Positions 4,077 through 27,168 of a stretch of DNA of 64,000 bases are shown piece by piece. The notes below the pieces were generated by a model. It saw only the letters and a program-made list of their open reading frames with translations. It was not told where the DNA came from and did not search any database. The stretch is from Clostridiales bacterium (GTDB lineage: Bacteria; Bacillota; Clostridia; Oscillospirales; Oscillospiraceae). How positions within the stretch are numbered: the stretch's first letter is position 1; each line of letters starts with the position of its first letter. Position numbers and translations under genes: made by a program. The stretch spans positions 7,681 through 71,680 of the forward strand of contig JALFJQ010000002.1 in the NCBI GenBank assembly GCA_022775085.1. The letters run 5' to 3'.

Positions 4077-5222
4077 TCACTTCGCCATTGCCGCCTTCCG
4101 CAGCACCCTCATGAAAATATCCCCGGTGGTGAGCCGTTCCACCCCCTCCGCCGCCACCAGCGGAATCTGCCGCAGAGTCTGCTCCCCGGACTTGATGGAC
4201 AGGGTTCCGATCTGCTGGCCTCTCGTCACCGGGGCGGTCACCTGCTCCTCCAGCGTCACTTCTGTAGTGACGCTGCTTTTTTGCGCCTTGTCAATGAGCA
4301 GCCCTGTGGCCTCCCCCAGCGCCGCGTTTACCGTGTCCTGCCGTCCCAGCTTTACGGGCACGCCGGGTACTTCACTGAGTTCCGGGGAGATCACGGCAAA
4401 ATTCGCGAAGCCGTAGTCAAGCAGTTCCTTGCAGGCGGCGTTCCGTTCCTTACTGGTCTTGGCCCCCATGACCACCGCTACCAGCTCCATACCCTCCCGC
4501 TGGGCCGAGGCCGACAGGCAGTACCCCGCTCCGGTGGTAAAGCCGGTTTTCAGACCCGTAGCCCCTGGGTAAAAGCGGATGAGCTTATTGGTGTTGGACA
4601 GGCCGAAGGCCCCGTCCCGGACGGTATCCATCCAGATGGTGGTGTACTTTTTAATGAGGGGATGGTTTCGGAGCAGTTCCCGGGACATGAGGGCGATGTC
4701 ATAGGCGCTGGTTCGGTGCTGTTTGGCTGCATCGTCGTCGTCAAGGCCTGTGCAGTTGACAAAGTGGGTGTCCCGCATTCCCAGTTCTCTGGCCCGCTGG
4801 TTCATGGCGTCCACGAAAGCGCTCTCCGATCCGGCGATGTGCTCCGCCATGGCGCAGGCGCAGTCGTTTGCCGAGGACACAGCAATGGATTTGAGCATGT
4901 CCGACACGCTCATGGTCTCCCCGGCCTTTAAGTAAATTTGGCTGCCCCCTTTGGCGGCGGCGTTTTCCGAGGCGGTGACGGTGTCCGTCAGCGCGATCTT
5001 CCCGGAATCCACCGCCTCCATAATGAGCAGCATGGTCATCACCTTGGTGACGCTGGCAGGAGCCAGAGGCTCGTGGGAATTATTCTCATACAGCACCGTT
5101 CCCGTGGTCACGTCCATGAGCACCGCGCTTTTCCCCGCCTCTGCCAGGGCTGCCGCTCCGGCCCGCAGAGGAAGCATCCCCACGATCAAGGCCGCCGCCA
5201 GAATCCACCGCATTCGCTTCAT
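4077..5222 (-). CDS. D-alanyl-D-alanine carboxypeptidase (serine-type, PBP5/DacB-like)
   Basis: Contains SVTKVMT (SxxK), SANDCA (SxN) and KTGFT (KTG) motifs, plus an N-terminal signal peptide MKRMRWILAAALIVGML. The start at 5222 was chosen for its GGAGGG RBS; the ORF track extends it to 5279. Confidence 0.85.
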   Translation of the reverse strand: MKRMRWILAAALIVGMLPLRAGAAALAEAGKSAVLMDVTTGTVLYENNSHEPLAPASVTKVMTMLLIMEAVDSGKIALTDTVTASENAAAKGGSQIYLKAGETMSVSDMLKSIAVSSANDCACAMAEHIAGSESAFVDAMNQRARELGMRDTHFVNCTGLDDDDAAKQHRTSAYDIALMSRELLRNHPLIKKYTTIWMDTVRDGAFGLSNTNKLIRFYPGATGLKTGFTTGAGYCLSASAQREGMELVAVVMGAKTSKERNAACKELLDYGFANFAVISPELSEVPGVPVKLGRQDTVNAALGEATGLLIDKAQKSSVTTEVTLEEQVTAPVTRGQQIGTLSIKSGEQTLRQIPLVAAEGVERLTTGDIFMRVLRKAAMAK

Positions 5223-5280
5223 AGCAATCCCTCCTTGCACTCTAGTGTATTCTACGCTTGAGTTGAGGGAATATGCCACT

Positions 5281-5447: not shown

Positions 5448-6845
5448 ATGTCAAGAAGCTCTGTCAGGGATCTGACTGTGGGCAGCCCCATGAAGCTGGT
5501 CCTTTCCTTTATGCTTCCGCTGCTGTTCGGCCTGCTGTTTCAGCAGTTTTACAGCATGGTGGATACGGTGGTGGTAGGCAAATTTCTGGGCGTGGACGCG
5601 CTGGCCGGCGTGGGATCCACCGGTTCCGTAAATTTTCTGGTGCTGGGCCTGTGCAACGGTGTCTGCGCCGGATTTGCTATCCCCGTGGCCCAGAAATTCG
5701 GGCAGAAGGATTTTGACGGTCTGCGCCGGTTCGTGGGCAACATGGTCTGGCTGGGTACTGCCATTGCCCTCATCGTTACACTGGCCACCACCGCTCTGTG
5801 CGATCCCATTCTTCGATGGATGGACACTCCGGAGGAGACTCTCTCCTACGCCTACGACTATATCTGGGTAATCTTTCTGGGCATCCCCGCCACCATGCTG
5901 TATAATCTGCTGTCCGGCATCATCCGTTCTCTGGGCGACTCCCGGACGCCGCTGGTGTTCCTGATCCTGTCGAGCCTGCTGAATGTGGTGCTGGATATTG
6001 TATTCATTGTGGGCTTCCACATGGGCGTGGCAGGCGCGGGCTGGGCCACGCTGCTGAGCCAGTTGATCTCCGGACTGCTGTGTCTGGGGCTTATAATCAA
6101 ACGCTTCCCCCTGCTCCACCTGCGCCGGGACGACCTGCGGTTCCGGGGTGTCTACGCCCGGCACCTGCTGAACATGGGCCTGCCCATGGGCCTGCAATAC
6201 TCCATCACCGCCATCGGCAGCATCCTGCTGCAGACCGCCGTCAACGGTCTTGGCGCCAACGCTATGGCAGCGGTCACCGCGGGCAGCAAGGTGTATATGC
6301 TCTGCGCCTGCCCCTATGATGCCATCGGCACCACTGCCGCCACCTTCGCCGGACAGAATCTGGGGGCGGGAAAACCGGAGCGGATTCATCAGGGTGTCCG
6401 CGCCTGCACCATACTGGGCGTCATTTATGCCGCCGTCATTTTCCTGGCAATGTATCTCTGGGGCAGCCAGTTGTGCCTGATGTTCCTGGACACCAAGGAT
6501 GCGGCGGCAGTGGCTTCCATCGGAGCCTTGAGCCGTCAGTTCCTGCTGATAAATCTGGCGTTCTTCGTGCCGCTGCTGTTCGTAAATCTGCTGCGCTTTA
6601 CCATTCAGGGGCTGGGCTTTTCCGAGTTCGCGGTATTCGCGGGGGTTTTTGAAATGCTGGCCCGGGGTGTGTTCGGGCTGTGCCTGGTGCCCTGGCTGGG
6701 CTTCCCCGCCGTGTGCTATGCCAGCCCGGCGGCATGGGTCATGGCGGATCTGTTCCTGTTCCCGGCCTACTGCGCCTGCATGAAGAAACGGGGCTATCAA
6801 TTCGAAAAGGCCAGGATTTTCCATCCAGGCCGTTCCAAAGCATAA
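5448..6845 (+). CDS. MATE-family multidrug/oligosaccharidyl-lipid efflux transporter
   Basis: 465-aa polytopic membrane protein. The N-terminus PMKLVLSFMLPLLFGLLFQQFYSMVDTVVVGKFLG is typical of MATE/NorM. A GGAGGG RBS is present. Confidence 0.9.
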   Translation: MSRSSVRDLTVGSPMKLVLSFMLPLLFGLLFQQFYSMVDTVVVGKFLGVDALAGVGSTGSVNFLVLGLCNGVCAGFAIPVAQKFGQKDFDGLRRFVGNMVWLGTAIALIVTLATTALCDPILRWMDTPEETLSYAYDYIWVIFLGIPATMLYNLLSGIIRSLGDSRTPLVFLILSSLLNVVLDIVFIVGFHMGVAGAGWATLLSQLISGLLCLGLIIKRFPLLHLRRDDLRFRGVYARHLLNMGLPMGLQYSITAIGSILLQTAVNGLGANAMAAVTAGSKVYMLCACPYDAIGTTAATFAGQNLGAGKPERIHQGVRACTILGVIYAAVIFLAMYLWGSQLCLMFLDTKDAAAVASIGALSRQFLLINLAFFVPLLFVNLLRFTIQGLGFSEFAVFAGVFEMLARGVFGLCLVPWLGFPAVCYASPAAWVMADLFLFPAYCACMKKRGYQFEKARIFHPGRSKA

Positions 6846-9809: not shown

Positions 9810-10202
9810 ATGAAAAACCAATATTTATTCGCGCTCTGGGGCGCTTTGTTTATTCTGTGCGCCGGTCTGGGCTTTATCCCGGAACCTGCCGGCGCTCTTA
9901 GGATTTTACTCACCGGGCTGTCTGCTCTTTTCTTTTTACCGCCGGCTGTGCTGGTCTGGAAGGGACACCGGGAACGGAACCGCCGCCAGCTGGCTCTGGT
10001 ACGGGACCTGAGCATCGTGTCACTGAGCCTGAGCGTTTTGCTGCTGATTGCCAATTTTCTCAGCGCGTTCCACTCGGAATTGCTGGGAAACATCCTCCAC
10101 GGAGTGCTGGTGGTGGTGTCAAGCCCCATGATCTGCAGCGGTCACTGGGCGCTGAGCCTGTTTCTGTGGGCCTGCCTGCTGATCGGCAGCCTGAAAAGAT
10201 AA
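9810..10202 (+). CDS. hypothetical small membrane protein (about 4 TM)
   Basis: 130-aa hydrophobic ORF with a GGGAGG RBS. It is followed immediately by a strong hairpin. Confidence 0.55.
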   Translation: MKNQYLFALWGALFILCAGLGFIPEPAGALRILLTGLSALFFLPPAVLVWKGHRERNRRQLALVRDLSIVSLSLSVLLLIANFLSAFHSELLGNILHGVLVVVSSPMICSGHWALSLFLWACLLIGSLKR

Positions 10203-10205
10203 AAT

Positions 10206-10256
10206 GCTGTCATAGCGAACCGACACGCGCACCGGTTCGCTATGACAGCTCTTTTT
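10206..10256. terminator. bidirectional rho-independent terminator (17-bp stem)
   Basis: gctgtcatagcgaaccg-acacgcgcac-cggttcgctatgacagc is followed by tcttttt. It sits between convergent genes. The stem sequence resembles the arms of MITE-like family B. Confidence 0.7.
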
Positions 10257-11700
10257 ACATAGACCCCTCCCGGCGGAGAACCACCAGAACGGTTTGCAGC
10301 AGGATCCGCAGGTCCAGACCCATGCTCCACTCCTGAATGTACTTCTTGTCCAGCGCCACCACCTGCTCAAAATCGGTGATCTTGCTTCTGCCGCTGACCT
10401 GCCACATTCCAGTGATGCCGGGCTTGGTGGCCAGCCTTGCCCGGTGGTGCAGCTCGTATTTATCCCACTCGTCCACCGTAGGGGGCCGGGTGCCCACCAA
10501 CGACAGGTCGCCCTTGAGGACATTCCAGAACTGGGGGAATTCATCCAGGCTCCAGTCCCGGATGAAGTTGCCGATGCCCTTCTTGACAGTGCCGTTGGGC
10601 AGTTTTTTGCTGCCAATGATCCGGGGATCAAAGTCCAGCTTAAACATCAGGCCGCCGCCCACCCGGTTTTGTGCCATCAGCTCGGCTTTCCGGGCCTCGG
10701 CATCCAGATACATGGAGCGGAATTTGTACATCTTAAACAGCTTGCCGTTTTTGCCCACCCGGGTCTGGGCGAAGAAAATAGGGCCGGGGGACTGGATGTA
10801 AATCAGAGGGCCGATGAAGATGGTCAGCACCGCAGTAATGAGACACCCCACCAGGCCGCCCACAATGTCCATGCAGCGCTTGAGCAGCAGCTGCACCGGC
10901 GTAGCCATGTTCATGCCGATGGTGAGCACGGTCCGTCCGGCGATCTTCTCCACTTCCTGACGGTTCCAGCCCAGATCGGCAAAGCCCTCCATTTCCATGT
11001 GAACCACGATGCCCATTTCCGCCAGTTTTCCAATCAGGTCGGCAGGCGGCTGATCCTCCGCAGGGAAGGAGAGCACCACCTCGTCCACCCATTCCCGGCA
11101 CAGGAACCGCAGAACGTTGCCAGCGCAGCTGGTGACAGGAACTCCCAGAATTTCGGTGCCGATCTCGTCCGCGTCCATTAGGCACAGACCGCTGATCCGG
11201 TACTGACTGACCTCCCGGGTCTGGTATCGCTCCACCACCCCGGCAGCCCGATTCTTTGTGGTGATGATGTAAATGGCAGTCTTATTTTTGTCCGGTGTCC
11301 GCTTCAGGAAGCTTTTCCAAAGCTGCCGTGCCGCATAAGCCATCACAAAGTAGTAGCAACCAAAGTAGCCGATCACCAGCCGGGAGTAGGTTTCGCTGTC
11401 CTTGACCAGGAACAGATACATCATGCACAGCAGCAGCACCAGAATCACGTGCTTCGCCGTCACGGCCAGCTCCTTGTAATACCCCCGGTACATAACGCCC
11501 CGGGTGGTCCCGCCGATAATCATGACCGCGAAATCCAGCAGCAGCAGGATCAGCGCCAGACTGACATAGATTTCCTTGTTTTGCAGATGAATGCCGTATC
11601 TGGTCAGATAGGCCAGTGAAAATGCCACCAGCAGGCAGACCAGGTCGATCACGATGAAGTCCAGGTGCTTCATCCAATCCTGTGTTTTTTCCCGATACAT
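10255..11700 (-). CDS. WbaP/EpsL-type polyprenyl-phosphate glycosyl-1-phosphate transferase (priming sugar transferase)
   Basis: N-terminal TM bundle plus a C-terminal bacterial sugar transferase domain (PIFFAQTRVGKNGKLFKMYKFRSM, DEFPQFWNVLKGDLSLVGTRP). Confidence 0.9.
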   Translation of the reverse strand: MYREKTQDWMKHLDFIVIDLVCLLVAFSLAYLTRYGIHLQNKEIYVSLALILLLLDFAVMIIGGTTRGVMYRGYYKELAVTAKHVILVLLLCMMYLFLVKDSETYSRLVIGYFGCYYFVMAYAARQLWKSFLKRTPDKNKTAIYIITTKNRAAGVVERYQTREVSQYRISGLCLMDADEIGTEILGVPVTSCAGNVLRFLCREWVDEVVLSFPAEDQPPADLIGKLAEMGIVVHMEMEGFADLGWNRQEVEKIAGRTVLTIGMNMATPVQLLLKRCMDIVGGLVGCLITAVLTIFIGPLIYIQSPGPIFFAQTRVGKNGKLFKMYKFRSMYLDAEARKAELMAQNRVGGGLMFKLDFDPRIIGSKKLPNGTVKKGIGNFIRDWSLDEFPQFWNVLKGDLSLVGTRPPTVDEWDKYELHHRARLATKPGITGMWQVSGRSKITDFEQVVALDKKYIQEWSMGLDLRILLQTVLVVLRREGSM

Positions 11701-11701
11701 A

Positions 11702-13054
11702 TTATCTCTCTCCTTCCCGGGTCCGCCAAGCGTTCATATAGCCGAGGCACATCATGAAAACAAAGTCGTAAAAATAATAGGTAATCCCGTCCGCGAACAA
11801 ATAAGGCTCCAGCATCGCGCAGACCAGCAGACTCAGCATCAGCATGGCGATGCAGCTTTCCCAAAGATTCCTGTTGTACCACAAGATTGCAGCCACATTC
11901 CACACCGCCAGAACAGTCAGCACCAGCGCCAATATCAGCCCAGCTATGCCTCTCCTGCACCAGACCTCCATCCAGGAATTGTGGGCGTGGGCCGCGGGAG
12001 TACTCCGCCCCCCCTGCTGGATCACCAAATCCACGTACTCTGTTCCTACCGTGCGCAGCTGGCTGTCATCCCGCATACGGCTCAGAATTGCCTGCCAGAT
12101 ACGTGTTCTTCCATTCAGGGTCCCCATGTTCTGTTTCAGCGTTCCCTGACGGCTGCCGGTCTTCAGCTTTCCGTTCCCGTCCAGCTGGGGCGTATCCTCG
12201 TCCATGATGCCTGTGCGCTGCGCCTGAACCGCAAGCCCTATACGATAGTCCACGTTGGAACGGAAAATCACCTGCGATGCGCCAAACAGAACCACCACAA
12301 CGGCGATTCCCGCCAGTGCTGCCAGCGCCAGCCGCTGCCAGCCGGGTCGACGCAGGGCGCAGAATACTATGCCACCCAGCATCAAGCAGGTAATCATGAT
12401 GGCTGTTCGCCCATTGGTCAGTGACATCAGAGCAAATTGCAGTGCCGCCAACACAAGGAGCAGCCCCCTGAGCCAGCGTTTTTTGCTGCGGATGCAAAAT
12501 CCGACGCAGAACGCGATCCCAATCATCAGCAGCGCGGCACACTGGTTGGGGTGACCCATGGCACAAAATCTGGCACCGTCCCATGTAACGTAGTTTTTCA
12601 AGAATGTCGGCAGCTTTCCCAACATCAGCATGGCCCCATACAGCAAAATCAGCACACCGCCGCCGACGGCTGTCATGCCAGTCAGCCGCAGACCGTACTG
12701 CTTCCCGGAATCCGCGCTGACAGTACAGAAGGGCAGCGCCAGCGCGTATACACAGGCCACCGTACCTACTTCCGCCTTGTTCATTCCCATGGTCTGATGA
12801 ATGATCTGAACCACGATATACCAGGCGATCACCGCGCCGCCCAACAACAGCATCATCTTTGTCTGCCGGGTCTGTCTGCTGCAAAGGGCGGTCCCCAGAA
12901 AGATCATGGCAGGGATCGCCATATACTGTTCCAGAATGTACCACACGATCCCACCTTTTCTATCCTCAAACAGAAGGAGCAGGACCTCCATCAGCAGTAC
13001 AGCGATCAGGCAGGCATACTGGACACGTCTGCCTTTATCACTCAGTAAATTCAT
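11702..13054 (-). CDS. O-antigen ligase / Wzy_C-family membrane protein, paralogue 1
   Basis: 450-aa polytopic protein with an HAHNSWMEVW motif and a large loop. Its stop lies 1 nt from the transferase start. Confidence 0.8.
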   Translation of the reverse strand: MNLLSDKGRRVQYACLIAVLLMEVLLLLFEDRKGGIVWYILEQYMAIPAMIFLGTALCSRQTRQTKMMLLLGGAVIAWYIVVQIIHQTMGMNKAEVGTVACVYALALPFCTVSADSGKQYGLRLTGMTAVGGGVLILLYGAMLMLGKLPTFLKNYVTWDGARFCAMGHPNQCAALLMIGIAFCVGFCIRSKKRWLRGLLLVLAALQFALMSLTNGRTAIMITCLMLGGIVFCALRRPGWQRLALAALAGIAVVVVLFGASQVIFRSNVDYRIGLAVQAQRTGIMDEDTPQLDGNGKLKTGSRQGTLKQNMGTLNGRTRIWQAILSRMRDDSQLRTVGTEYVDLVIQQGGRSTPAAHAHNSWMEVWCRRGIAGLILALVLTVLAVWNVAAILWYNRNLWESCIAMLMLSLLVCAMLEPYLFADGITYYFYDFVFMMCLGYMNAWRTREGER

Positions 13055-14402
13055 ACCTTCCCCTTTCCCCTATCCGCCACTGGTTCATATAGCCGAGGCA
13101 CAGTAGGAACAGAAAATCAAAAAAATGGTATTTTATGTTGACCGTGAACAGATATGGCTCCAAAAAGGCGCAGCCCAGCAGGCCCAGCATGACGACCGCC
13201 ACGCAGGATTTCCACAGGTCGTTATTGCGCCGCAGCAGCACCGCCGCGTTCCACAGAGCCAGCACAGTCAGCACCAGCGCCGAGACAAGCCCCGGCAGGC
13301 CCAGCTGGTAGAGGGCCTCCACCCAGGAATTGTGGGCGTGCAGCGTATCCATCCGCTGCCAGTAGGGGGAAATGGTTTCTCCCACCTTTTCCGTGCCGAT
13401 CAGCAGGATCCGGGGATTTGCCCGGAGGCCCTCCGCGGCGGCTGCCCAGATCTCCGTGCGCCCGTTCAGGGTCCGCAGATCGTTGGACATACTGCCCTGA
13501 CCGTTCTCCGTTTTCAGGGTTCCCTGGTCATTGAGCCGGACCTCGCCGGTCGTCTGCTGCCGGGCCTGCTCGGTCAGCCGGGCCTTGTTGCCGGCAAAAA
13601 TCGTCCGGGAAACGGCAAACAGGCTTACGGTAACCAAGATCGCCGCCAGCACCGCCGCAGCGGTCCGTTTCCAGCCCGGTTTTTTGAGAGCAAAAAACGT
13701 GATGGCACCAAACTGCACGCAGGCCAGAATCACCATCGTTCTGCTGTTGGTCAGAGACAGCGCCCAAAGCGGGGGCACCGCCAGCAGAAGCAGAGGGATA
13801 CGAAGCCGCCATTGTTTCACGCTCAGTGCAAAGCCCGCCGACAAGCCGGAGCCGACCATCAGCAGCGTAGCACAGATGTTTGGATGGCTCAGGATTCCCA
13901 GCCGCGCGCCGTCCCAATAGACATCGTCTGCCAGAAAATCCGGCAGCCGATCCAGCACCAGCAGAGCCGCGTAAAGGGAAAAGACTATACTGACTGCGGA
14001 AAACAGGGCCGCCATTCCCTTCAGACCCCACTGACGCTCCCCATCCCCGGCTGCTGCCGCGAAAAGGAAGCACAGGGCGTAGCCGCAAACAAAGACGCCG
14101 GGGGTTTTCGCGGTCTGTTCCAGCTGAAGGTGAAGGCTGCGCACCACATAAAACCAGATCACCGTCAGCAGCGCCAGCAGGAGCTGCCGCCTGCCGCGGC
14201 GCAGCCCGCCGCAGCAGAGGGACGCCGCCAGGAACAATATGCTGACATCCACCAGACGCCACTCCAGAAAGGTATAGAGCAGGTTGTCTGCCGGGTGCCC
14301 CGGCAGGAAATACAAAATCTCCACGCACAGAACCGCCAGCAGGCACAGATACTGCACGGCCCGTGCGGCAGACTGAAGCCGATCTCGATTTATCACACGC
14401 AT
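13038..14402 (-). CDS. O-antigen ligase / Wzy_C-family membrane protein, paralogue 2
   Basis: 454 aa with HAHNSWVEALYQLGLPG. It overlaps paralogue 1 by 17 nt. The C-terminal LCLGYMNQW tail is shared with the other paralogues. Confidence 0.8.
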   Translation of the reverse strand: MRVINRDRLQSAARAVQYLCLLAVLCVEILYFLPGHPADNLLYTFLEWRLVDVSILFLAASLCCGGLRRGRRQLLLALLTVIWFYVVRSLHLQLEQTAKTPGVFVCGYALCFLFAAAAGDGERQWGLKGMAALFSAVSIVFSLYAALLVLDRLPDFLADDVYWDGARLGILSHPNICATLLMVGSGLSAGFALSVKQWRLRIPLLLLAVPPLWALSLTNSRTMVILACVQFGAITFFALKKPGWKRTAAAVLAAILVTVSLFAVSRTIFAGNKARLTEQARQQTTGEVRLNDQGTLKTENGQGSMSNDLRTLNGRTEIWAAAAEGLRANPRILLIGTEKVGETISPYWQRMDTLHAHNSWVEALYQLGLPGLVSALVLTVLALWNAAVLLRRNNDLWKSCVAVVMLGLLGCAFLEPYLFTVNIKYHFFDFLFLLCLGYMNQWRIGERGRYEFTE

Positions 14403-14403
14403 A

Positions 14404-15786
14404 TTATGCCGCCTTCCCGCCGCGCCACAGATTCAGGTAGCCCAGGCACAGTAAGAACAGAAAATCCAAATAGTGGTAGCTGACATCCACCACGAACAGG
14501 TACGGCTCCAGCAGAGCGCAGCCCAGCAGGCACAGGGTCAGCAGCGCCACACCGCATTTCCACAGATCCCGGCTCCGCCATAGCACGTCCGCCGCGCTCC
14601 ACACCGCCAGCGCAGTGAGCGCCAACGCCGCCGCCAGTCCCGGCAGGCCCATGCGGTACAGGGCTTCCAGCCAGGAGTTATGGGTGTGGTAAAGGACAGC
14701 GGGGCTGTACCGGGTCATGATCATCTCCACATACTCGGTGCCGATCAGCAGGATCCGTGGATTTTCCCGCAGGCCGTGCAGGGCGGTCTGCCAGATGGTG
14801 GTGCGCCCGTTCAGGGTTTTCAGATCCTCGCCGAAGCTGCTTTGCTGGTTGACCACCTCCATGACCGGCGGTTCGCTTTCCGCCTGCATCAGCTGGATGG
14901 GTTCCGTGGATACCTGCCGCATGGTGAAAGCCTCCATCAGCCGGTTTTGATTCCACTGGTACAGGCCCCGGGAGACGACAAACAGACTGCCCATGACCAG
15001 CACCGCTGCCGCCAGTGCGGCAGCCAGCCGTTTCCAGCCGGGCCCCCGCAGTGCGCAGAAGGTCAGACCGCCCAGCAGGAGGCAGGTGAAAATAATGGTG
15101 GTCCGTCCATTGGTCAGGGACATGGCCGCAAATTCCGCCGCGCACAGGATCGCCAGCAGGATTTTGACCCAGCTCTTCCGGCAGGAAAGCGCCAGCGCCG
15201 CCGACAGGCCGATGCTGATCATCAGCAGCGTGGCGCAGATGTTGGCGTGACCCATAGCAGAGAAGCGGACGCCGTCCCAGTATACATAACTTTTCAATCC
15301 TTCCGGCACCCGGTTTAACAGCAGCATCCCCGCGTAAACCAAAATCAGCACACCCACCGCCAGGAACAGGCCGGTCATCATTTTCAGTCCCCGCTGGCGT
15401 TTTCCGTCCCGGGTGGCCGACGCAAAGGGGAAGCACAGGGCGTAGGCGCAGACGAAGGTGCCCGTCTCCTTGGCAGAGGATTCCAGCACCTGATGCAGGG
15501 TCTGAATGACGAAAAACAACCCCACCATCGCCAGTCCCGCATACAGCTGCCGCTTTTCCTGTCGGTTCAGATCCCGGCAGAACGACGCACCCGCAAAGGC
15601 CAACGCCGGCAGCGCCAGATACCGCTCCGCGTACAGATAGGCGATGCCGCCGGCACGGTCCTCCAGCAGGAAAAAGGCAAGCTCCATCAGGATCATCGCC
15701 AGCAGGCTGACAAACTGCACCCGCTGTGCCCGATCCTCCGGGGAAAGGGCCCCGCGTTCGGTTCTGAATTTCCACATAAATTTCAT
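14404..15786 (-). CDS. O-antigen ligase / Wzy_C-family membrane protein, paralogue 3
   Basis: HTHNSWLEALYRMGLPG motif. The start at 15786 (MKFMWKF) was chosen for a GGAGG RBS; the ORF track extends it to 15822. The stop lies 1 nt from the paralogue 2 start. Confidence 0.8.
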   Translation of the reverse strand: MKFMWKFRTERGALSPEDRAQRVQFVSLLAMILMELAFFLLEDRAGGIAYLYAERYLALPALAFAGASFCRDLNRQEKRQLYAGLAMVGLFFVIQTLHQVLESSAKETGTFVCAYALCFPFASATRDGKRQRGLKMMTGLFLAVGVLILVYAGMLLLNRVPEGLKSYVYWDGVRFSAMGHANICATLLMISIGLSAALALSCRKSWVKILLAILCAAEFAAMSLTNGRTTIIFTCLLLGGLTFCALRGPGWKRLAAALAAAVLVMGSLFVVSRGLYQWNQNRLMEAFTMRQVSTEPIQLMQAESEPPVMEVVNQQSSFGEDLKTLNGRTTIWQTALHGLRENPRILLIGTEYVEMIMTRYSPAVLYHTHNSWLEALYRMGLPGLAAALALTALAVWSAADVLWRSRDLWKCGVALLTLCLLGCALLEPYLFVVDVSYHYLDFLFLLCLGYLNLWRGGKAA

Positions 15787-15918
15787 AGTTGCCTCCTGCC
15801 TGAAACCGATGCTGCCGGCCAAAAGGGCAGACTCTCAGCTTTTTCTGACATCATACCACAGCCGGTATCTTTTTGCAACCACATCCCTTTTCCGCAGGGC
15901 ATTGGAAACGGGCACGGC

Positions 15919-15953
15919 AAAAAAGGAGGGAACCACGTTCGTGATTCCCTCCT
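15919..15953 (-). terminator. rho-independent terminator of the perR-rbr-rd-orf109 operon
   Basis: The plus strand reads aaaaaa-ggagggaa-ccacgttcgtga-ttccctcc. On the minus strand this is a hairpin followed by a T6 run, 55 nt after the orf109 stop. Confidence 0.55.
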
Positions 15954-16008
15954 TCAACAGGGTCGGTTCTTTTTTCCGGGAGCAGAATCCGCTCCCTTCC
16001 GGGGTTCC

Positions 16009-16338
16009 TTAGTCCAGGATCTCCATCAGTCTGCCGCAGCAGAAGGGGATGGGCTCACCGGCCTTGACATGCAGGGTCTTGTTGCAGGTGACGCAGTACA
16101 CATCGGTGTCATAGGGAGCACGGATAACAGGTACTTCCTTGGCCTCCTGCTCGGACAGGCCGTCGATATGGAACACGGCGGTCTTGTTTTCGCTGGGGAC
16201 ATACACGCCGATGGGAGACAGGGTCTTGTTCCCGCCGACGCAGTTGCCCATCTTCACCCACAGGGCTTCCAGTTCAGCAGCTTCCGCAGCGTGCTCGGGA
16301 GTGAACTCCACAACATCCTTATTGATACGAATTTTCAT
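16009..16338 (-). CDS. hypothetical 109-aa protein with C-terminal CxxC...CC motif, co-transcribed with rubredoxin
   Basis: A GAGGAG RBS lies inside the rubredoxin 3-prime end, with a 5-nt gap. Codon usage resembles the neighbours. The sequence contains YCVTCNKTL...PFCCG. I recognise no family. Confidence 0.6.
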   Translation of the reverse strand: MKIRINKDVVEFTPEHAAEAAELEALWVKMGNCVGGNKTLSPIGVYVPSENKTAVFHIDGLSEQEAKEVPVIRAPYDTDVYCVTCNKTLHVKAGEPIPFCCGRLMEILD

Positions 16339-16343
16339 GGCAA

Positions 16344-16478
16344 TTACTCCTCAGGGCTGAATTCGTCCTTGCCCACGCCGCACAGCTCACAGGCGAAATC
16401 CTCGGGCAGATCTTCCCACTTGACGCCGGCCTCGTCCTCATCATAGACCCAGCCGCAGACATTGCAAACGTACTTCAT
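16344..16478 (-). CDS. rubredoxin
   Basis: [44 protein letters not shown] has two CxxCG knuckles. The ORF track extends the frame upstream to 16580. Confidence 0.9.
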
Positions 16479-16524
16479 AGTGATTTGCTCCTTTTCTGGT
16501 AGAATCAGGTAAATTTTCTGCTTC

Positions 16525-16554
16525 GCAGATGGCGGGTCAGTAACCCGCCCCTGC
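16525..16554. repeat. REP-like palindromic element (family A) between rubrerythrin and rubredoxin
   Basis: gcagatggcgggtcagtaacccgcccctgc. Confidence 0.55.
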
Positions 16555-16640
16555 GGACAATGCATCGAATCGGGTGACACCCAACGGTGTTGGACTACAG
16601 AAATGTCGCAGTCACGCCATTGCCTGCGGCGGCTCGCCGC

Positions 16641-17231
16641 TTACTTGAAATAGCGCTCCAGCAGGCCCTTCAGAGCCTTGCCGTGACGGGCCTCGTCACG
16701 AGCCATCTCGTGAACGGTGTCGTGGATGGCGTCCAGGCCGTTCTTCTTGGCGCACTTGGCCAGATCGAACTTGCCGGCGGTGGCGCCGAACTCGCAGTCA
16801 ACACGCCATGCCAGGTTGTCCTTGGTGGTAGCCTTCATGTTGGGCTCCAGATCCTCGCCCAGCAGCTCAGCGAACTTAGCGGCGTGCTCAGCCTCCTCGT
16901 AGGCAGCCTTCTCCCAGTACAGGCCGATCTCGGGGTAGCCCTCGCGGTGAGCAATCCGGGCCATGCACAGGTACATACCGACCTCGCTGCACTCGCCGTT
17001 GAAGTTGGCCATCAGCTGCTCGAAGATGAACTTCTTGTCCTCGTCGGAGATGTCGGGGTTGTTCTTCACGGTCTTGGCGTAGATGCCGTACTCATGCTCA
17101 GCGGCCAGCTTGCCCTCTTCCATGACCTTGAACTTGGAGCCGTCGACCTTGCAGACGGGGCACTTGAAGCCTTCGGGGATGGACTCGCCTTCGTAGACGT
17201 AGCCGCAGACGGGGCAGACAAACTTCTTCAT
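16641..17231 (-). CDS. reverse rubrerythrin (N-terminal rubredoxin-like domain + ferritin-like diiron domain)
   Basis: [15 protein letters not shown]...KCPVC at the N-terminus is followed by EExxH motifs ([18 protein letters not shown]). The start at 17231 has a GGAGGA RBS. Confidence 0.9.
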
Positions 17232-17270
17232 AATAAATTCCTCCAATTTGATAAATTTTTCGGGTTTTAC

Positions 17271-17660
17271 TTACTTATTTGCGCATTTTCCGCACAGGCC
17301 GGTGAAGGTCAGGCGGCAGTTCTGAATACGGCAGCCGGAAACTTCTTCCGCTTCCGCGCTCAGGCTTTCGGGAATCTCCATCTGCGGCAGGTCCACGATC
17401 TCGTCGCAGCCGGTGCAGATGAAGTGCACATGGGGATGGGTCATTGCGTCGAATCGCTCAACGCCGTGGACGGTGGCAACGCTATTCACCAAGCCCTGAC
17501 TTTTGAACCGGGCCAGGTTGCGGTACACCGTCGCCAGAGAGATGTCCGGATGCTCCTTTTGCAGCATTTCGTACACCATTTCCGCCGACGGGTGGGTGGT
17601 GGCCCCTTGCAGGCAGGCGAGGATGGCGTTGCGCTTTCTGAACTGCTTCGCAGCTTCCAT
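17271..17660 (-). CDS. perR: Fur-family peroxide-responsive repressor (PerR-like)
   Basis: HPSAEMVYEMLQKEHPDISLATVYRNL is the DNA-binding helix. HFICTGCDEI and GLCGKC provide the two CxxC pairs. The gene sits upstream of rubrerythrin. The start at 17660 has a GGAGGTG RBS. Confidence 0.8.
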   Translation of the reverse strand: MEAAKQFRKRNAILACLQGATTHPSAEMVYEMLQKEHPDISLATVYRNLARFKSQGLVNSVATVHGVERFDAMTHPHVHFICTGCDEIVDLPQMEIPESLSAEAEEVSGCRIQNCRLTFTGLCGKCANK

Positions 17661-17678
17661 AGACACCTCCTGTCCTAT

Positions 17679-17701
17679 TTGCAAGTGATTCTTACTTACA
17701 A
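17679..17701. promoter_or_regulatory. candidate operator (imperfect inverted repeat) at the perR transcription start region
   Basis: ttgcaagt-gattctt-acttacaa has 7 of 8 complementary arm positions. It lies between the predicted -10 and the RBS. Confidence 0.3.
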
Positions 17702-17705
17702 GCTA

Positions 17706-17734
17706 AGTATATCATTTGGATTTTCTGATGTCAA
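17706..17734 (-). promoter_or_regulatory. candidate sigma-A promoter of the perR operon
   Basis: On the minus strand there is TTGACA (17734..17729), a 17-nt spacer and TATACT (17711..17706). Confidence 0.55.
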
Positions 17735-17785
17735 GAATTAAATGAGAATAATTTGCAAATAAATTTTGAACAGTACGGTATCCCT

Positions 17786-17927
17786 GTCATTGCGAACCAG
17801 CGCGCACGCTGGTGTGGTGACCGAAGGGAATGCCTGCGGTGCAATCCGTTCCCTTCAAGACGTTGCCCATTTGTACACGCAGCCAATGGAGAACGGATTG
17901 CCACGTCGCCGCACTCCTCGCAATGAC
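17786..17927. mobile_element. MITE-like inverted-repeat element, family B (142 bp)
   Basis: The ends are gtcattgcgaaccag... and ...cctcgcaatgac. It is homologous along its length to 19133..19253 (shared ctggtgtgg, caagaYgttg, gagaacggatt). No coding capacity is evident. Confidence 0.6.
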
Positions 17928-17947
17928 ATCAAGCGACAGGAGGCAAG

Positions 17948-18142
17948 TTACACCGCCGCTTCCTTGATGACCGCCACGCCGTCTACGAGGTTCGCCATTT
18001 CCAGGGTTCCCTCCACAGCCATCTGGCGCTCCATCAGGTCGGTTAGGATGACCATGCCGTCCTTGCACTCGATGCGCATGACGTTCTTCATCATCACCAT
18101 TTCAGGGGCCAGTTTATTCTTGTATACGGTAGAAAGGCACAT
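17948..18142 (-). CDS. CooT-family nickel-binding protein
   Basis: 64 aa starting MCLSTVYKNK, with the N-terminal Met-Cys2 typical of CooT. Size and beta-rich pattern fit, and an AAGGAG RBS is present. It lies 13 nt downstream of the His-rich gene. Confidence 0.7.
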   Translation of the reverse strand: MCLSTVYKNKLAPEMVMMKNVMRIECKDGMVILTDLMERQMAVEGTLEMANLVDGVAVIKEAAV

Positions 18143-18155
18143 AGAAATTCTCCTT

Positions 18156-18593
18156 TTATTCGTGCTCCATGCTGGTGAGCACCACGCTCAGACGCATATT
18201 GCCCTTCTCGAAGTCAGACACGGCGGCCATGACCTGCTCATAGGCGGTGTGGTCTCCGGTCTGGTCCAGCTTTGCGGCCAGATCGGCCAACTCCTTGGCG
18301 TGGGCGGCGTTGTGGCCCACCATATACTTCATCAGGGCCATCAGCTCTTCCTTGGGGGTGTGCTCGCACTGGGTCTGGCAGCTTCCGCAGGCGCCTTCGC
18401 AGCCGTGGCTGTGGGTGTGCTCCGCGCCGCTTTCGTGGATGTGGTCGTGGGTATGAGGATGGGCATGTTCATGGGTGTGCTCGTGGACGTGCTCATGGGT
18501 ATGGGTCACACCGTCGTGGGTGTGCTCGTGGGTATGGGCGTGCTCATGGGAATGCTCATGGGGAACGCCGGTATGATCGTGATCAACGTGCAT
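18156..18593 (-). CDS. histidine-rich metal-binding protein (hypothetical)
   Basis: The N-terminal 60 aa are about 40 percent His (HVDHDHTGVPHEHSHEHAHTHEHTHDGVTHTHEHVHEHTHEHAHPHTHDHIH). A Cys cluster CEGACGSCQTQC follows, then a helical C-terminal domain. An AGGAGG RBS is present. Confidence 0.7.
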   Translation of the reverse strand: MHVDHDHTGVPHEHSHEHAHTHEHTHDGVTHTHEHVHEHTHEHAHPHTHDHIHESGAEHTHSHGCEGACGSCQTQCEHTPKEELMALMKYMVGHNAAHAKELADLAAKLDQTGDHTAYEQVMAAVSDFEKGNMRLSVVLTSMEHE

Positions 18594-18622
18594 AGGATAA
18601 GTCCTCCTTTTGGTTTTTCTAT

Positions 18623-18651
18623 ATTATAGTACCAATTCGACCCCATGTCAA
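18623..18651 (-). promoter_or_regulatory. consensus sigma-A promoter of the His-rich/CooT operon
   Basis: On the minus strand there is TTGACA (18651..18646), a 17-nt spacer and TATAAT (18628..18623). Confidence 0.6.
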
Positions 18652-18670
18652 AACATTTATTTCCGTCAAA

Positions 18671-18690
18671 ATATCCCCCTCGGGGGCTTG
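18671..18690. promoter_or_regulatory. candidate CsoR-family operator (C5-N2-G5 inverted repeat)
   Basis: atatCCCCCtcGGGGGcttg sits in the divergent intergenic region. It overlaps the putative -35 (TTGCGG, 18688..18693) of the plus-strand promoter, whose -10 TATAAT is at 18711..18716. Confidence 0.35.
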
Positions 18691-18748
18691 CGGAGAATCG
18701 CCTGCCGTAGTATAATACACTTTACTATGATAAAGAGGAGGGCTGGGT

Positions 18749-19120
18749 ATGTCCGAACTTCACGAACACGAGCACTGCCATGGCCACGATCATGAACAGG
18801 AGCAGGAACACGACCACGCCTACCTCCACGCCCACGGCATCGCCCACTCCCACAGCCATGTCCACGAAAATCAGAAGGCAGTCATTAACCGCCTGTCCCG
18901 GGCCATCGGCCATCTGGAGAAGGTCAAGCGGATGGTGGAGGAGGGGCACGACTGCTCCGAGGTGCTCATCCAGCTGGCTGCCGTCCGCTCCGCCCTGGAC
19001 AACACCGGCAAGGTGATCCTGAAGGATCATATGCGGCACTGCATGGTGGATGCCGTGGCGGCGGGAGATACGGAAGCCATCGACGATCTGTGTCAGGCAA
19101 TTGATAAATTTATGAAATAA
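18749..19120 (+). CDS. CsoR/RcnR-family metal-sensing repressor with His-rich N-terminal extension
   Basis: The core NRLSRAIGHLEKVKRMVEEGHDCSEVLIQLAAVRSALDNTGKVILKDHMRHC carries Cys...His-x3-Cys ligand positions. The N-terminus reads SELHEHEHCHGHDHEQEQEHDHAYLHAHGIAHSHSHVH. A GAGGAGG RBS is present. Confidence 0.85.
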   Translation: MSELHEHEHCHGHDHEQEQEHDHAYLHAHGIAHSHSHVHENQKAVINRLSRAIGHLEKVKRMVEEGHDCSEVLIQLAAVRSALDNTGKVILKDHMRHCMVDAVAAGDTEAIDDLCQAIDKFMK

Positions 19121-19132
19121 GGGTTTTCATGT

Positions 19133-19253
19133 GTCATTGCGAACCAGTCCTCTTTACTGGTGTGGCAATCCGCATCCCCGCAAGATGTTGGTCAACCGAC
19201 ATTGGTGGGGAGAACGGATTCCCACGCCAGTGTGCGCACTGGCTCGGAATGAC
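19133..19253. mobile_element. MITE-like inverted-repeat element, family B (121 bp)
   Basis: The ends are gtcattgcgaaccag... and ...ctcggaatgac. It is homologous to 17786..17927. Confidence 0.6.
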
Positions 19254-19390
19254 ATTTCTTTTTTACCGCGTCCCGCGGTAATAATTCTGAACAGCCCTTG
19301 AATTTTTCTTGAATTATGCCGTTAGGACTGGAACTTTTTCCGCGCTTATGGTATACTGTGCGCAAGTATAAGATGCCAGAGTATGCGAAG

Positions 19391-19465
19391 GCCGCAGGGC
19401 GGCCAGCCAATGCGTTACGGACGCTGGCGGCAGTCGCTACACCATTGGGCCTGCTCGACCGGCAG
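19391..19465 (-). repeat. family C element, single copy, inverted orientation
   Basis: The reverse complement ctgccggtcgagcaggcccaatggtgtagcgactgccgccagcgtccgtaacgcattggctggccgccctgcggc aligns with the 100-bp unit. Confidence 0.6.
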
Positions 19466-19505
19466 TGCTCAGTAATCTGGTAAATTACGCTATGGAGAGA
19501 AGACT

Positions 19506-21590
19506 ATGCTGGAATTATTGGCTCCCGCCGGTTCTATGGAAGCCCTGCGTGCCGCGGTGCAGAATGGCGCCAACGCCGTGTATCTGGGCGTAGGCAATCT
19601 GAACGCCCGCCAGAGCGCGAAAAACTTTACCCCCCAGACCCTGGTGGACGCGGTGAAATACTGCCACGTCCGGGGCGCTGAGGTGCATCTGACCCTGAAT
19701 ACCCTGGTCTCCGACCGGGAGATGAAGGAGGCGGCGGAGTTAATCCGCCACGCCGCCCAGAACAATGTCGATGCCTTCATCGTGCAGGACCTGGGCGTGG
19801 TGCAGCTGTGCCGCCAGATTGCCCCCCACATCCCCATCCACGGCTCCACCCAGATGACCGTCCACTCCCTGCCGGGGGTGCAGCTGTGCGCCGCCATGGG
19901 CTTAAAACGGGTGGTGCTGAGCCGGGAACTGAGCCGGGAGGAGATCCGGTATATCTGCGCAAATTCTCCCATTGAAATTGAAGTGTTCGTTCACGGCGCC
20001 CTGTGTATGTGCTACAGCGGGCAGTGCTACCTGTCCTCCGCCATCGGCGGCCGCTCCGGCAACCGGGGCCGCTGCGCCCAGCCCTGCCGCCAGAGCTACG
20101 GCTACGGCCATTGGGAGGAAAAATACCCCCTGAGTCTTAAGGACAACTGCCTTGTCCACTATTTACAGGAGCTGGAAGCTATGGGCGTGGCCTCCGTGAA
20201 GCTGGAAGGCCGGATGAAAAAGCCCGAGTATGTGGCCACTGTCACCGCCGTGTACCGCAAGGCCATGGACGAAAAGCAGGTGACCCGGCCCATGATGGAT
20301 GCCCTGATGACCGCCTTCAACCGGCAGGGCTTCACCGACGGCTACTACACCAATCGGGTGGATAAGAAAATGTTCGGTGTCCGTCTGGACACCCGGGATG
20401 ATCCCCAATGGCTTCAGGCTGCCCGGCAGTCCTTTGAGGCGGGGGAGACCCAGCTGGTAGATCTCAAATTCCGGGCTGTGGTCACGGTGGACGGCAGCTC
20501 CCTCACCGCCACCGACCCAGAGGGCCGCACCTGTACCGTGCCCGGCCCCCGTCCGGAACGGGCCATCAATCTGGCTCTCACCGGGGAAATGCTGGCCCAG
20601 CGGGTGGCAAAAACCGGCGGCACCCCCTACCGCTGCGCCGAGGTGCGCACAAGGGTTGACCCGGGTCTCATCATCTCCGCCGCCGCCATCAACGCCATGC
20701 GCCGGGATGTGCTGAACCAGCTCACCGCCCTGCGGGCCCGGCGGGAGGAGCATCCAATCCGCCAGCCCAAGCCGGTGCCGGATTACAAGGGGCCCAATGG
20801 CCTGCCCGGCCTGACGGTACAGGTCACCACAAGGGAGCAGCTGACCCCGAATCTGCTCAACTCCGAAACCGCCATGCTCTATGTGCCCCTGCACATCCTC
20901 ACCGCCGACCCGGACATGACCCTTCGTCTTGTTCAGCGGGGGCGGCTGGCGGCGGCATTGCCGAGAATCGTCCACGACGGGGAAATGCCCAAGCTCAAAA
21001 AGGATCTGGCGCTTTTGCAGAGTCTCGGTGTCCGCCACGCGCTGGTGGGCAATCTGGGCCTTCTCGGCCCCGTCCGGGAGGCGGGCATGAAGGTTCACGG
21101 CGATTTCGGCCTGAATATCTACAACTCTGCTTCCATGAACGTGCTGCGTTCTCTGGAAGCGGCCTCCGCCACGGTGAGCTTTGAAATGACTCTGCCTCAA
21201 ATTCGCGACCTGAGCAAGGCGGTAAACACGGAGATCATCGCCTACGGCCGGCAGCCCCTGATGGTGACGGAGCACTGCCTCATTCAGGGCCGCACCGGCG
21301 AGTGCACCTGCCATCTTGGCGGCATTACCAAGCTGACGGACAAGACCGGCGCGGAATTTCCCATTATCCGCGACGGCGACAGCTGCCGCAGCGTCCTGCT
21401 CAACGGCAAGAAGCTCAGCTGGCTGGATCGGCAGGACGACCTTGCCAAGCTGGGTGTCTGGGCCATCCGGCTGTCCTTCACCACGGAAAACGCAAGGGAA
21501 GTGGATCGCATTCTGGAAGATTATCTGAATCCCACCCCCTTCGACCCCGGCGCGTGTACGAGAGGACTGTATCTGCGCGGCGTAGAATAG
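19506..21590 (+). CDS. U32-family peptidase (collagenase-like)
   Basis: MLELLAPAGSMEALRAAVQNGANAVYLG at the N-terminus and the E..VHGALC.CYSGQC motif are typical of peptidase U32. This is a long (694 aa) form. Confidence 0.88.
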   Translation: MLELLAPAGSMEALRAAVQNGANAVYLGVGNLNARQSAKNFTPQTLVDAVKYCHVRGAEVHLTLNTLVSDREMKEAAELIRHAAQNNVDAFIVQDLGVVQLCRQIAPHIPIHGSTQMTVHSLPGVQLCAAMGLKRVVLSRELSREEIRYICANSPIEIEVFVHGALCMCYSGQCYLSSAIGGRSGNRGRCAQPCRQSYGYGHWEEKYPLSLKDNCLVHYLQELEAMGVASVKLEGRMKKPEYVATVTAVYRKAMDEKQVTRPMMDALMTAFNRQGFTDGYYTNRVDKKMFGVRLDTRDDPQWLQAARQSFEAGETQLVDLKFRAVVTVDGSSLTATDPEGRTCTVPGPRPERAINLALTGEMLAQRVAKTGGTPYRCAEVRTRVDPGLIISAAAINAMRRDVLNQLTALRARREEHPIRQPKPVPDYKGPNGLPGLTVQVTTREQLTPNLLNSETAMLYVPLHILTADPDMTLRLVQRGRLAAALPRIVHDGEMPKLKKDLALLQSLGVRHALVGNLGLLGPVREAGMKVHGDFGLNIYNSASMNVLRSLEAASATVSFEMTLPQIRDLSKAVNTEIIAYGRQPLMVTEHCLIQGRTGECTCHLGGITKLTDKTGAEFPIIRDGDSCRSVLLNGKKLSWLDRQDDLAKLGVWAIRLSFTTENAREVDRILEDYLNPTPFDPGACTRGLYLRGVE

Positions 21591-21599
21591 AAAATTCGT

Positions 21600-21622
21600 T
21601 GGGCGGGTTCATGACCCCGCCG
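21600..21622. repeat. REP-like element (family A)
   Basis: tgggcgggttcatgaccccgccg. A further half-copy, catgaccccgccctac, lies at about 21717..21733. Confidence 0.5.
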
Positions 21623-21755
21623 ACCCGGTTGGAATATACACAAGTAAAAAACAACGCATACGGGTTGTTTCCGAAAATAACGCACCAGTACCATGGAATT
21701 GGTGCGTCGGCGGATGTCATGACCCCGCCCTACAACGTAAGAAAGGCACAAATCT

Positions 21756-23239: not shown

Positions 23240-23249
23240 GGAGCGCGCC

Positions 23250-26065: not shown

Positions 26066-26080
26066 ACAGGAGGAATGGAT

Positions 26081-27085: not shown

Positions 27086-27095
27086 CACAGATGCC

Positions 27096-27134
27096 AAAGA
27101 GAGGAAGCGGAGTGTTCCGCTTCCTCTCTTTTTC
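27096..27134. terminator. bidirectional rho-independent terminator
   Basis: aaagagaggaagcgg-agtgtt-ccgcttcctctcttt is followed by ttc. It lies between convergent genes. Confidence 0.7.
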
Positions 27135-27168
27135 ATGGAGTACGGGGCAGCGATGCCGTCCCGGCTGT

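Follow-up and report, generated by a model that had tools for sequence, protein, structure and literature searches.

A conserved operon of tandem Wzy_C paralogues and a priming phosphoglycosyl transferase at a fixed chromosomal site in gut Oscillospiraceae

To characterize a compact glycan module in a Clostridiales bacterium, we analysed a 64,000-nucleotide stretch of its DNA (contig JALFJQ010000002.1, positions 7,681 to 71,680; hereafter the window). Four minus-strand genes in this window form an operon that encodes three paralogous membrane proteins with a Wzy_C domain (paralogues 1 to 3, representing clades C1 to C3) and a priming phosphoglycosyl transferase (PGT). We give a probability of roughly 0.5 to the reading that the operon combines this primer with ligase-type enzymes, similar to WaaL and TacL, that perform the end step of an undecaprenyl-diphosphate (Und-PP)-dependent envelope glycan pathway, the other genes of which would lie elsewhere. 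The evidence comes from the predicted fold, from an invariant Arg/Arg/His set and from the gene contexts of the family. The host appears to be a spore-forming pig-gut member of the Oscillospiraceae, similar to Faecousia: a SpoIIP gene at 47834-48880 and the titles of related metagenome-assembled genomes (MAGs) point to a spore-forming Clostridia lineage, and no lipopolysaccharide genes were seen in the window.

Gene content and operon structure

The operon and its borders comprise the following features.

14404..15786, minus strand: Wzy_C paralogue 1 (clade C1), 460 aa; predicted WaaL-fold GT-C enzyme with 12 transmembrane (TM) helices
13038..14402, minus strand: Wzy_C paralogue 2 (clade C2), 454 aa
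11702..13054, minus strand: Wzy_C paralogue 3 (clade C3), 450 aa
10255..11700, minus strand: large polyprenyl-phosphate hexose-1-phosphate transferase (PGT of the WbaP/CpsE/WcaJ class), 481 aa
15850..15878, minus strand: promoter-like site TTGCAA-17-nt-TATGAT with an upstream TG, a consensus scan match only, about 64 nt 5' of the first start codon
10206..10249, both strands: intrinsic-terminator hairpin with a 20-bp perfect stem and T-runs on either side, common to the operon and the convergent gene
9810..10202, plus strand: convergent gene for a 130-aa membrane protein with four hydrophobic segments

The four genes run from 15786 to 10255 as one operon-like unit, with the promoter-like site in front, a ribosome-binding site at each junction and a strong terminator behind. 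The junctions at 14402/14404 and 11700/11702 both read TAA-T-ATG and leave a gap of 1 nt, and paralogues 2 and 3 overlap by 17 nt (13038-13054); the ORFs and junction sequences thus confirm the tight packing described in the original prediction, which had been made from the sequence of this stretch. At each junction a purine-rich Shine-Dalgarno sequence lies within the 3' end of the preceding gene. The first open reading frame (ORF) covers 14404-15822 on the minus strand and probably starts at the ATG at 15786: AGGAGG is found 6 nt 5' of this codon, while the TTG at 15822 comes immediately after the -10 box and is therefore an unlikely start. The promoter-like site is located immediately downstream of a terminator-like hairpin that closes a 109-aa ORF. 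All three internal junctions were spanned by contigs of one pig-gut metatranscriptome. Altogether, the four genes form a genuine operon and one conserved unit.

The fourth gene product matches the Pfam families Bac_transf (197.1 bits) and CoA_binding_3 (37.7 bits), and passes the NCBIfam model TIGR03025 (EPS_sugtrans) with 340.7 against a cutoff of 295.55. By these sequence models it is a large polyprenyl-phosphate hexose-1-phosphate transferase of the WbaP/CpsE/WcaJ class. It falls below the equivalog cutoffs for both WbaP, a galactose-1-phosphate transferase (268.4 versus 403), and WcaJ, a glucose-1-phosphate transferase (269.7 versus 410.75), and its sugar specificity is therefore not assignable from these models. 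In close relatives the PGT shows 84-89% identity, compared with 48-57% for the PGTs found beside Wzy_C genes at three more distant loci (L008, L010 and L090).

A Pfam scan of all sizeable genes in the window gave no match to a glycosyltransferase (GT) family, to Polysacc_synt/Wzx, to LCP or to Wzz. A complete Wzx/Wzy-dependent cluster would hold a PGT, GTs, Wzx and a polymerase together; here there is just the PGT with the Wzy_C genes. The earlier statement that no flippase or other GT lies nearby therefore holds for the entire 64 kb, in which the sole gene of the MOP superfamily is a MatE gene at 5448-6845 on the plus strand, 3.4 kb from the PGT gene and opposite to it in orientation. We considered this MatE as a dedicated flippase. 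It is syntenic among relatives (84-91% identity), and a MatE gene and a MurJ gene are also found near other family members, the former 600 nt downstream of the homologue in L009 and the latter beside the homologue in L008. The window MatE is only 32% identical to the L009 MatE and 22% to the L008 MurJ, which are thus not its orthologues, and we rejected this candidate.

Fold and residue pattern of the Wzy_C proteins

Paralogues 1, 2 and 3 match Pfam Wzy_C (PF04932) with 54.2, 51.2 and 49.2 bits, respectively, against a gathering score of 31.7, and all listed homologues carry the same domain. Together with the PGT scores this bears out the proposed composition of three Wzy_C paralogues and a WbaP-type transferase. 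The paralogues are 41-49% identical to one another and share the motifs WDGxR, SLTN(G/S)RT, LNGRTxIW, HxHNSWxE and EPYLF and a CLGY(M/L)NxWR tail. HxHNSWxE and the common tail had been recognized before; the tail had been described as starting LCLGY, which fails in the third copy, where it starts MCLGY. All three genes are intact, with a GC content at third codon positions (GC3) of 0.70-0.80, and judging from their sequences none of the three is decaying. Among 1.84 billion representatives, the subfamily comprises 156 clusters (50% identity) at E<=1e-30 and 1623 at E<=1e-3. Four of its representatives (P0277, P0303, P0316 and P0344) are 555-685 aa long and contain two profile-matching stretches, possibly as the result of a fusion or duplication of Wzy_C proteins.

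The catalytic-motif residues are R228/R328/H369 in paralogue 1, R221/R315/H357 in paralogue 2 and R216/R316/H358 in paralogue 3. In paralogue 2 numbering, R221, R315 and H355/H357 are invariant across 61 homologues and all three clades. The corresponding Arg/Arg/His residues of WaaL are reported to be important for function and to be conserved in PglL (PMC3643930), and in the solved WaaL of Cupriavidus metallidurans (CmWaaL) R191 and R265 bind Und-PP while H313 activates the acceptor (PMC10920833). O-antigen ligases have two Arg and a His, whereas related inverting polymerases have Asp or Glu at the His position (PMC10920833); in the proteins studied here this His is invariant. All three paralogues thus keep the ligase-type set, which speaks against the possibility, raised in the original prediction, that two of them are decaying duplicates.

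An AlphaFold2 model of paralogue 2, built with 61 homologues, had a pLDDT of 91.5 and a pTM of 0.92. The model predicts 12 TM helices; by the positive-inside rule both termini are probably inside, and residues 266-358 form a large outer loop between TM9 and TM10. The 12 TM helices and long extracytoplasmic loop near the C-terminus that characterize O-antigen ligases (PMC10920833) are therefore both present in the model. When it was compared with the PDB using Foldseek, the top match and the only significant one was WaaL (7tpg_B; E 3.4e-6, TM-scores 0.49/0.54), followed by FtsW at E 2e-3. Sequence alignment to WaaL was less direct. A first hhalign run against E. coli WaaL aligned the HxHN motif only, while a permissive run gave one co-linear 366-column alignment, of weak statistics, that placed R221/R315/H357 on R215/R288/H338 of the E. 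coli protein. The proposed equivalence of the Arg/Arg/His residues to those of WaaL thus draws on the co-linearity of the motifs.

To compare the clades, we assigned 149 homologues to C1, C2 or C3. Conservation of at least 95%, with the same residue in every clade, was found at 58 positions, roughly half of them in outer loops. Twelve positions are fixed differently between clades: these fall in TM2-4, in TM10 and in a single short outer loop, and the large outer loop holds none of them. The original prediction had suggested looking for conserved catalytic positions beside a diverged acceptor-facing loop: the first part stands, and the second does not, as far as clade-specific differences in the large loop are concerned.

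Overall, the paralogues share with WaaL (CAZy family GT121; E. coli K-12 and C. metallidurans, PDB 7TPG) the Wzy_C domain, the 12-TM GT-C fold, the long outer loop before TM10 and the Arg/Arg/His motifs in the same order and register, and WaaL donors are Und-PP-linked glycans. They differ from WaaL in having no significant sequence similarity to it, in additional conserved motifs (WDGxR...HPN, EPYLF and the CLGYxNxWR tail), in occurring as two or three tandem paralogues in an operon with a PGT, and in their Gram-positive-type Clostridia host, which has no lipid A-core to serve as acceptor. The PglL, TfpO/PilO and PglS enzymes of Acinetobacter and Neisseria offer a parallel for several Wzy_C paralogues that draw on one lipid-linked pool for different acceptors, with the same Arg/Arg/His residues (PMC3643930, PMC9829042). 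These systems are Gram-negative, however, and PglL and TfpO are usually encoded beside an acceptor gene, whereas no candidate acceptor gene adjoins the operon; in addition, none of the paralogues matched PglL_A (PF15864) at E<=0.01 or any TPR family in Pfam.

Conservation of the locus and contexts in distant relatives

The genome scan for relatives found seven related Clostridia MAGs, one of which is titled Faecousia sp., and more contigs were obtained through protein look-ups and a metagenome scan. The latter yielded loci L098-L117 with alignment A2 and none with the distant-clade alignment A3. Caulobacter loci from the genome scan (L011-L080) were set aside, since they matched only over the short stretch with the HxHNSW/LNGR motifs.

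In about 14 related contigs the Wzy_C array, generally with the PGT, is found at the same chromosomal site by nrdR. The gene order in close relatives is sugar-ABC transporter, LacI, GH77, Opp operon, Wzy_C, Wzy_C, PGT, 130-aa gene, nrdR, SdpI-like, hydA, MatE and PBP5. The array is therefore not a rearrangement remnant of a conventional polysaccharide cluster, an outcome that the original prediction had allowed for, since it occupies this site amid unrelated transport and housekeeping genes. Three copies are not the conserved state: the number of Wzy_C genes ranges from one to three, and the usual state in close relatives is two, orthologous to paralogues 1 and 2. Paralogue 1 is 61-68% identical to its orthologues in relatives. 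The three-gene array C1-C2-C3-PGT occurs in the same order in one other organism (L081-L084), and paralogue 3, missing from the two-gene relatives, has its own orthologues at 57-68% identity (P0122-P0127; L081). In a neighbour-joining tree C3 branches outside C1+C2, and the two-gene genomes therefore most likely lost C3. A chimeric (C2/C3) origin of the second Wzy_C gene in relatives that have two was rejected, because sliding-window identity showed this gene to be C2-like over its full length; a DNA alignment that reaches into 11702-11985 reflects just the conserved 3' tail. C1, C2 and C3 thus appear from sequence comparison to be old, individually conserved clades with orthologues in other species.

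A more distant lineage (L100/L105), with 95% identity in nrdR, carries a tandem pair of Wzy_C genes at this site and neither PGT nor Opp operon; its array ends about 20 nt from the convergent 130-aa gene. In L105 (10750-12073) and L106 (1899-2843) the second tandem Wzy_C gene is split into two ORFs, which may reflect a pseudogene or an assembly error. The array is thus a long-lived chromosomal locus by nrdR in which lineages differ in copy number and in whether a PGT is present.

The Wzy_C genes are the fastest-evolving of this neighbourhood. Mean identity over eight species was 70-73% for Wzy_C, 82% for the 130-aa protein, 88% for the PGT, 94% for the Opp permease and ATPase, and 98% for nrdR. 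Compared with the relative L001, the Wzy_C proteins of the window are 67/63% identical while the flanks are 89-100% identical, a divergence far above what the flanks would lead one to expect. Such rates are expected of enzymes that track a variable surface glycan.

We also examined the gene contexts of the wider family, about 11 of which are independent. Ten of them lie outside any GT cluster, as lone or PGT-paired genes in housekeeping regions. Six are lone Wzy_C genes. The Wzy_C genes of L009, L089/L096, L091, L093 and L094 stand alone among housekeeping genes; L092 has a convergent pair of Wzy_C genes. In L008/L108, L010, L090 and L095 the Wzy_C gene adjoins an orthologous PGT gene. In L090 a double GT2 is found 4.5 kb away amid wall-associated proteins, and in L095 nucleotidyltransferase and choline-kinase-type (LicC/LicA-like) genes follow the PGT. 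No Wzz/CpsCD-type chain-length regulator was found in any locus examined.

The only conventional cluster is in L010 (1-13653), where LicD, GT2, GT32-like, GT2, Wzx, TagF-like and dehydrogenase genes lie directly upstream of the PGT-Wzy_C pair, and genes for a pyridoxal-phosphate-dependent decarboxylase and a PylC-like ATP-grasp enzyme come after it. This gene set suggests an amide-decorated teichoic-acid-like polymer. The upstream block has a GC content of 39.7% while the PGT and Wzy_C genes look native (GC3 0.72-0.77), so that a variable glycan cassette appears to have become attached to a resident pair.

Family members are often found beside sporulation or cortex-type genes (L089/L096, L091, L092, L093 and L095), such as yabP-divIC-S1, spoVT, a serine recombinase with a SpoVT_C domain and Spo0A_C proteins. 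A PBP5-type carboxypeptidase among these neighbours is 71% identical to that of the window, which also encodes a polysaccharide deacetylase (window genes at 978-1775 and 4077-5279). A role of the Wzy_C family in the spore envelope is a weak lead from these contexts.

Proposed role, alternatives and neighbouring genes

We propose that the operon supplies the first and last membrane-bound steps of an Und-PP-dependent pathway for a cell-envelope glycan. After priming by the PGT, cytoplasmic GTs encoded outside the window would extend the glycan and a MOP-family flippase would move it outward. At the outer face, as the fold and residues suggest, each Wzy_C protein would bind Und-PP through its two Arg and, with the conserved His as a base, would hand the glycan over en bloc to an acceptor, by analogy with WaaL, whose acceptor is lipid A-core, and TacL, which uses a glycolipid. 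Since the paralogues separated anciently and have been conserved individually, a difference between them in acceptor or donor preference is most likely; one of the three could be a polymerase. Wzy_C genes of this family often occur with one PGT family and almost never with GTs or a flippase, which matches a WaaL/TacL-like specificity for the Und-PP-proximal end of the glycan and a constant acceptor. This lone or PGT-paired pattern would fit ligases such as TacL, unlike repeat-unit polymerases, which travel with their GTs. A link to a full pathway is supported by the LicD/GT2/GT32/GT2/Wzx/TagF-like genes of L010 and the LicC/LicA-like genes of L095, which by analogy also point to a phosphocholine or teichoic-acid-type polymer.

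Two Firmicute systems come close to this proposal. TacL (RafX), the lipoteichoic acid ligase of Streptococcus pneumoniae, is a Wzy_C membrane protein encoded outside the assembly cluster that transfers teichoic acid chains assembled on Und-PP to a membrane glycolipid (PMC5727136). We liken it to the paralogues by its description; TacL is the product of a single gene (397 aa) with neither PGT partner nor tandem paralogues. WsaP/WsaB of Geobacillus stearothermophilus and WsfP/WsfB of Paenibacillus alvei each pair a WbaP-type five-TM primer with a Wzy_C transferase, and the P. alvei transferase gene is transcribed on its own (PMC2943079). These pairs are found in slg clusters that also hold rhamnosyltransferase and other GT genes and, as exporter, a Wzm/Wzt ABC system, adjacent to the S-layer gene, and WsfB has a C-terminal TPR; the operon described here has no GTs, exporter, S-layer gene or TPR.

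Several points weigh against ligation as the role of the operon. The GTs and flippase are assumed to be encoded elsewhere in the genome, not seen, and the function assigned to the Wzy_C family here draws on sequence, fold and context. What the analysis shows is gene content, operon structure, conservation, fold and residue pattern, from which the donor, the acceptors and a ligase rather than polymerase activity are inferred. The fold TM-scores to WaaL are only about 0.5, the family profiles (A1 and A2) matched no WaaL or other relevant chain of the PDB at E<=10, and hhalign against E. coli K-12 WaaL was weak at E ~0.09 (0.088), short of detectable homology. The distinction between His and Asp/Glu is drawn from few curated CAZy families and is no proven discriminator. 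L010 has no other visible polymerase candidate in the 8.5 kb upstream, so its Wzy_C protein could be the polymerase there, and the high divergence of the Wzy_C genes would fit repeat-unit polymerases equally well. As to expression, metatranscriptome depth was flat over intergenic DNA, and DNA carry-over is a possible source of the contigs.

The strongest rival, which we consider less likely, is that all three proteins act as Wzy-type repeat-unit polymerases, or one as a polymerase and the others as ligases, on units primed by the shared PGT, with a different glycan or linkage per paralogue and wall attachment by LCP enzymes encoded elsewhere. In L010 the pair completes a cluster of PGT, GT, Wzx and TagF-like genes that would otherwise lack a polymerase, and being the most divergent genes of a syntenic block is typical of wzy genes. 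There is precedent in Firmicute Wzy_C proteins annotated as polymerases, namely the S. aureus SscD/TuaE-like protein and C. difficile CD2777 (PMC11841062, PMC5065235), and pneumococcal teichoic acid requires a Wzy-like polymerase in addition to the Wzy_C ligase TacL (PMC5727136). The wall-polymer clusters concerned (B. subtilis tua, S. aureus ssc and C. difficile PSII) likewise combine a PGT with a Wzy_C-type enzyme acting on Und-PP units, and ssc is similarly small, with five genes (PMC11841062, PMC5065235); however, they always hold at least one GT and a MOP flippase by the polymerase, whereas the operon has neither and instead has three Wzy_C genes. NCBIfam polymerase models gave weak matches, both sub-threshold: EpaQ_fam, and TIGR04370 (oligosaccharide repeat unit polymerase) with 19 bits in paralogue 3 only, far under its cutoff of 40. 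Against polymerization we count, besides these low scores, the invariant His where related inverting polymerases carry Asp/Glu (PMC10920833), the consistent lack of a Wzz/CpsCD-type regulator at the loci examined, and the contexts, which show the cluster-encoded arrangement of polymerases in L010 only.

The original prediction had instead envisaged a self-contained system, in which the PGT makes Und-PP-monosaccharide, a non-dedicated transporter possibly flips it and the Wzy_C ligases place a single sugar or a homopolymer on two or three acceptors with no further GT. PglL-type enzymes can transfer very short Und-PP-linked glycans, so this chemistry is feasible; moreover, the genes are tightly packed and apparently translationally coupled, there is no GT or Wzx in 64 kb, and PGT-Wzy_C pairing with no adjacent GT recurs in the Faecousia clade, L008/L108, L090 and L095. 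The wider family weakens this proposal, which we consider improbable. The L010 pair is joined to a full GT/Wzx cluster, L095 has additional genes, L100/L105 retain the array with no PGT at the site, and the many lone members indicate enzymes independent of a co-encoded primer; from these contexts it follows that Wzy_C enzymes act on lipid-linked glycans primed and built elsewhere. A flippase would still be needed and none is encoded in the operon, the 130-aa protein having no GtrA/SMR similarity and the window MatE being so distant from the MatE beside the L009 homologue. We give similarly little weight to a related scheme of GT-independent, two-component surface modification, in which the PGT and the tandem WaaL-fold enzymes would put a single Und-PP-linked sugar, or its homopolymer, on two or three envelope acceptors, one per clade (glycolipid, wall polymer, protein or spore layer), and the 130-aa protein might be a helper or flippase. 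Least probable by far, in our estimate, is that the paralogues are duplicates, either redundant or in decay, or have the Wzy_C fold but a non-glycan role, with no specific three-enzyme logic. The split second copy in L105/L106 and the variable copy number speak for this reading, while the residues conserved across clades (about half of them in outer loops), the orthologues of each clade in other species, the intact window genes with their GC3 values and their coverage by transcript-derived contigs all argue otherwise.

All parts of the operon come from known families, and we found no described counterpart in the literature for an operon at a fixed site, in Gram-positive gut anaerobes, that couples two to three ancient paralogues of WaaL fold to a PGT. 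To our knowledge, the envelope glycans of gut Oscillospiraceae are almost unstudied, and very few Gram-positive Wzy_C proteins have assigned functions (TacL, the S-layer transferases and a few presumed polymerases). The locus defines a small, compact subfamily that has a WaaL-type catalytic set, pairs repeatedly with a single PGT family and forms old tandem arrays of paralogues at a fixed site. If the paralogues are ligases with different acceptors, they would show one lipid-linked glycan pool being distributed to several envelope targets in Firmicutes, and glycoengineering would gain new transferases that move glycans en bloc; should they be polymerases, the finding would be routine.

The flanks of the operon are unrelated to it, as had been described. 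Downstream are the convergent 130-aa gene, nrdR and an SdpI-like gene. The 130-aa protein is present in all relatives whose contig reaches that side, including the PGT-less L100/L105 (62-80% identity), and from this synteny it may be associated with the operon, or be merely syntenic with nrdR. It matched no Pfam family even at E<=10, and we therefore rejected it as a GtrA/SMR-type flippase.

On the upstream side, the 109-aa ORF is accompanied by rubredoxin and rubrerythrin genes and by one for a Fur/PerR-like protein. The first Wzy_C gene directly adjoins the gene for the Opp binding protein in about 12 related contigs; in this genome only, about 16.4 kb (15884-32335) separate the array from the Opp operon (32378-38410). 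This segment contains the rubredoxin, rubrerythrin and PerR-like genes, CooT, a His-rich protein, a CsoR-type repressor, a U32 peptidase, maf-mreC-mreD-PBP2, an S58 peptidase and a 1695-aa surface protein. Its housekeeping content disfavours a mobile-element origin, and a lineage-specific chromosomal rearrangement is more likely than an island. Within it, 17948-19120 is a metal-handling group of a CooT-like gene (17948-18142), the gene for the 145-aa His-rich protein (18156-18593), which had no Pfam match, and the divergent gene for the CsoR-type metal-sensing repressor (18749-19120), which has a His-rich N-terminus. The 1695-aa protein (27169-32256, minus strand) has a transglutaminase-like core and Big_2 and BspA-type LRR_5 domains, and is probably a surface protein; long opposite-strand ORFs at 26923-31401 (plus) and 23828-27172 (minus) were judged spurious from their GC3. 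Further along the window, adjoining spoIIP, is the remnant of an OppF-like ABC ATPase gene (about 47076-47849, minus strand), which aligns only to residues 68-324 of intact OppF and is missing the N-terminal ~67 residues, the expected Walker A region.

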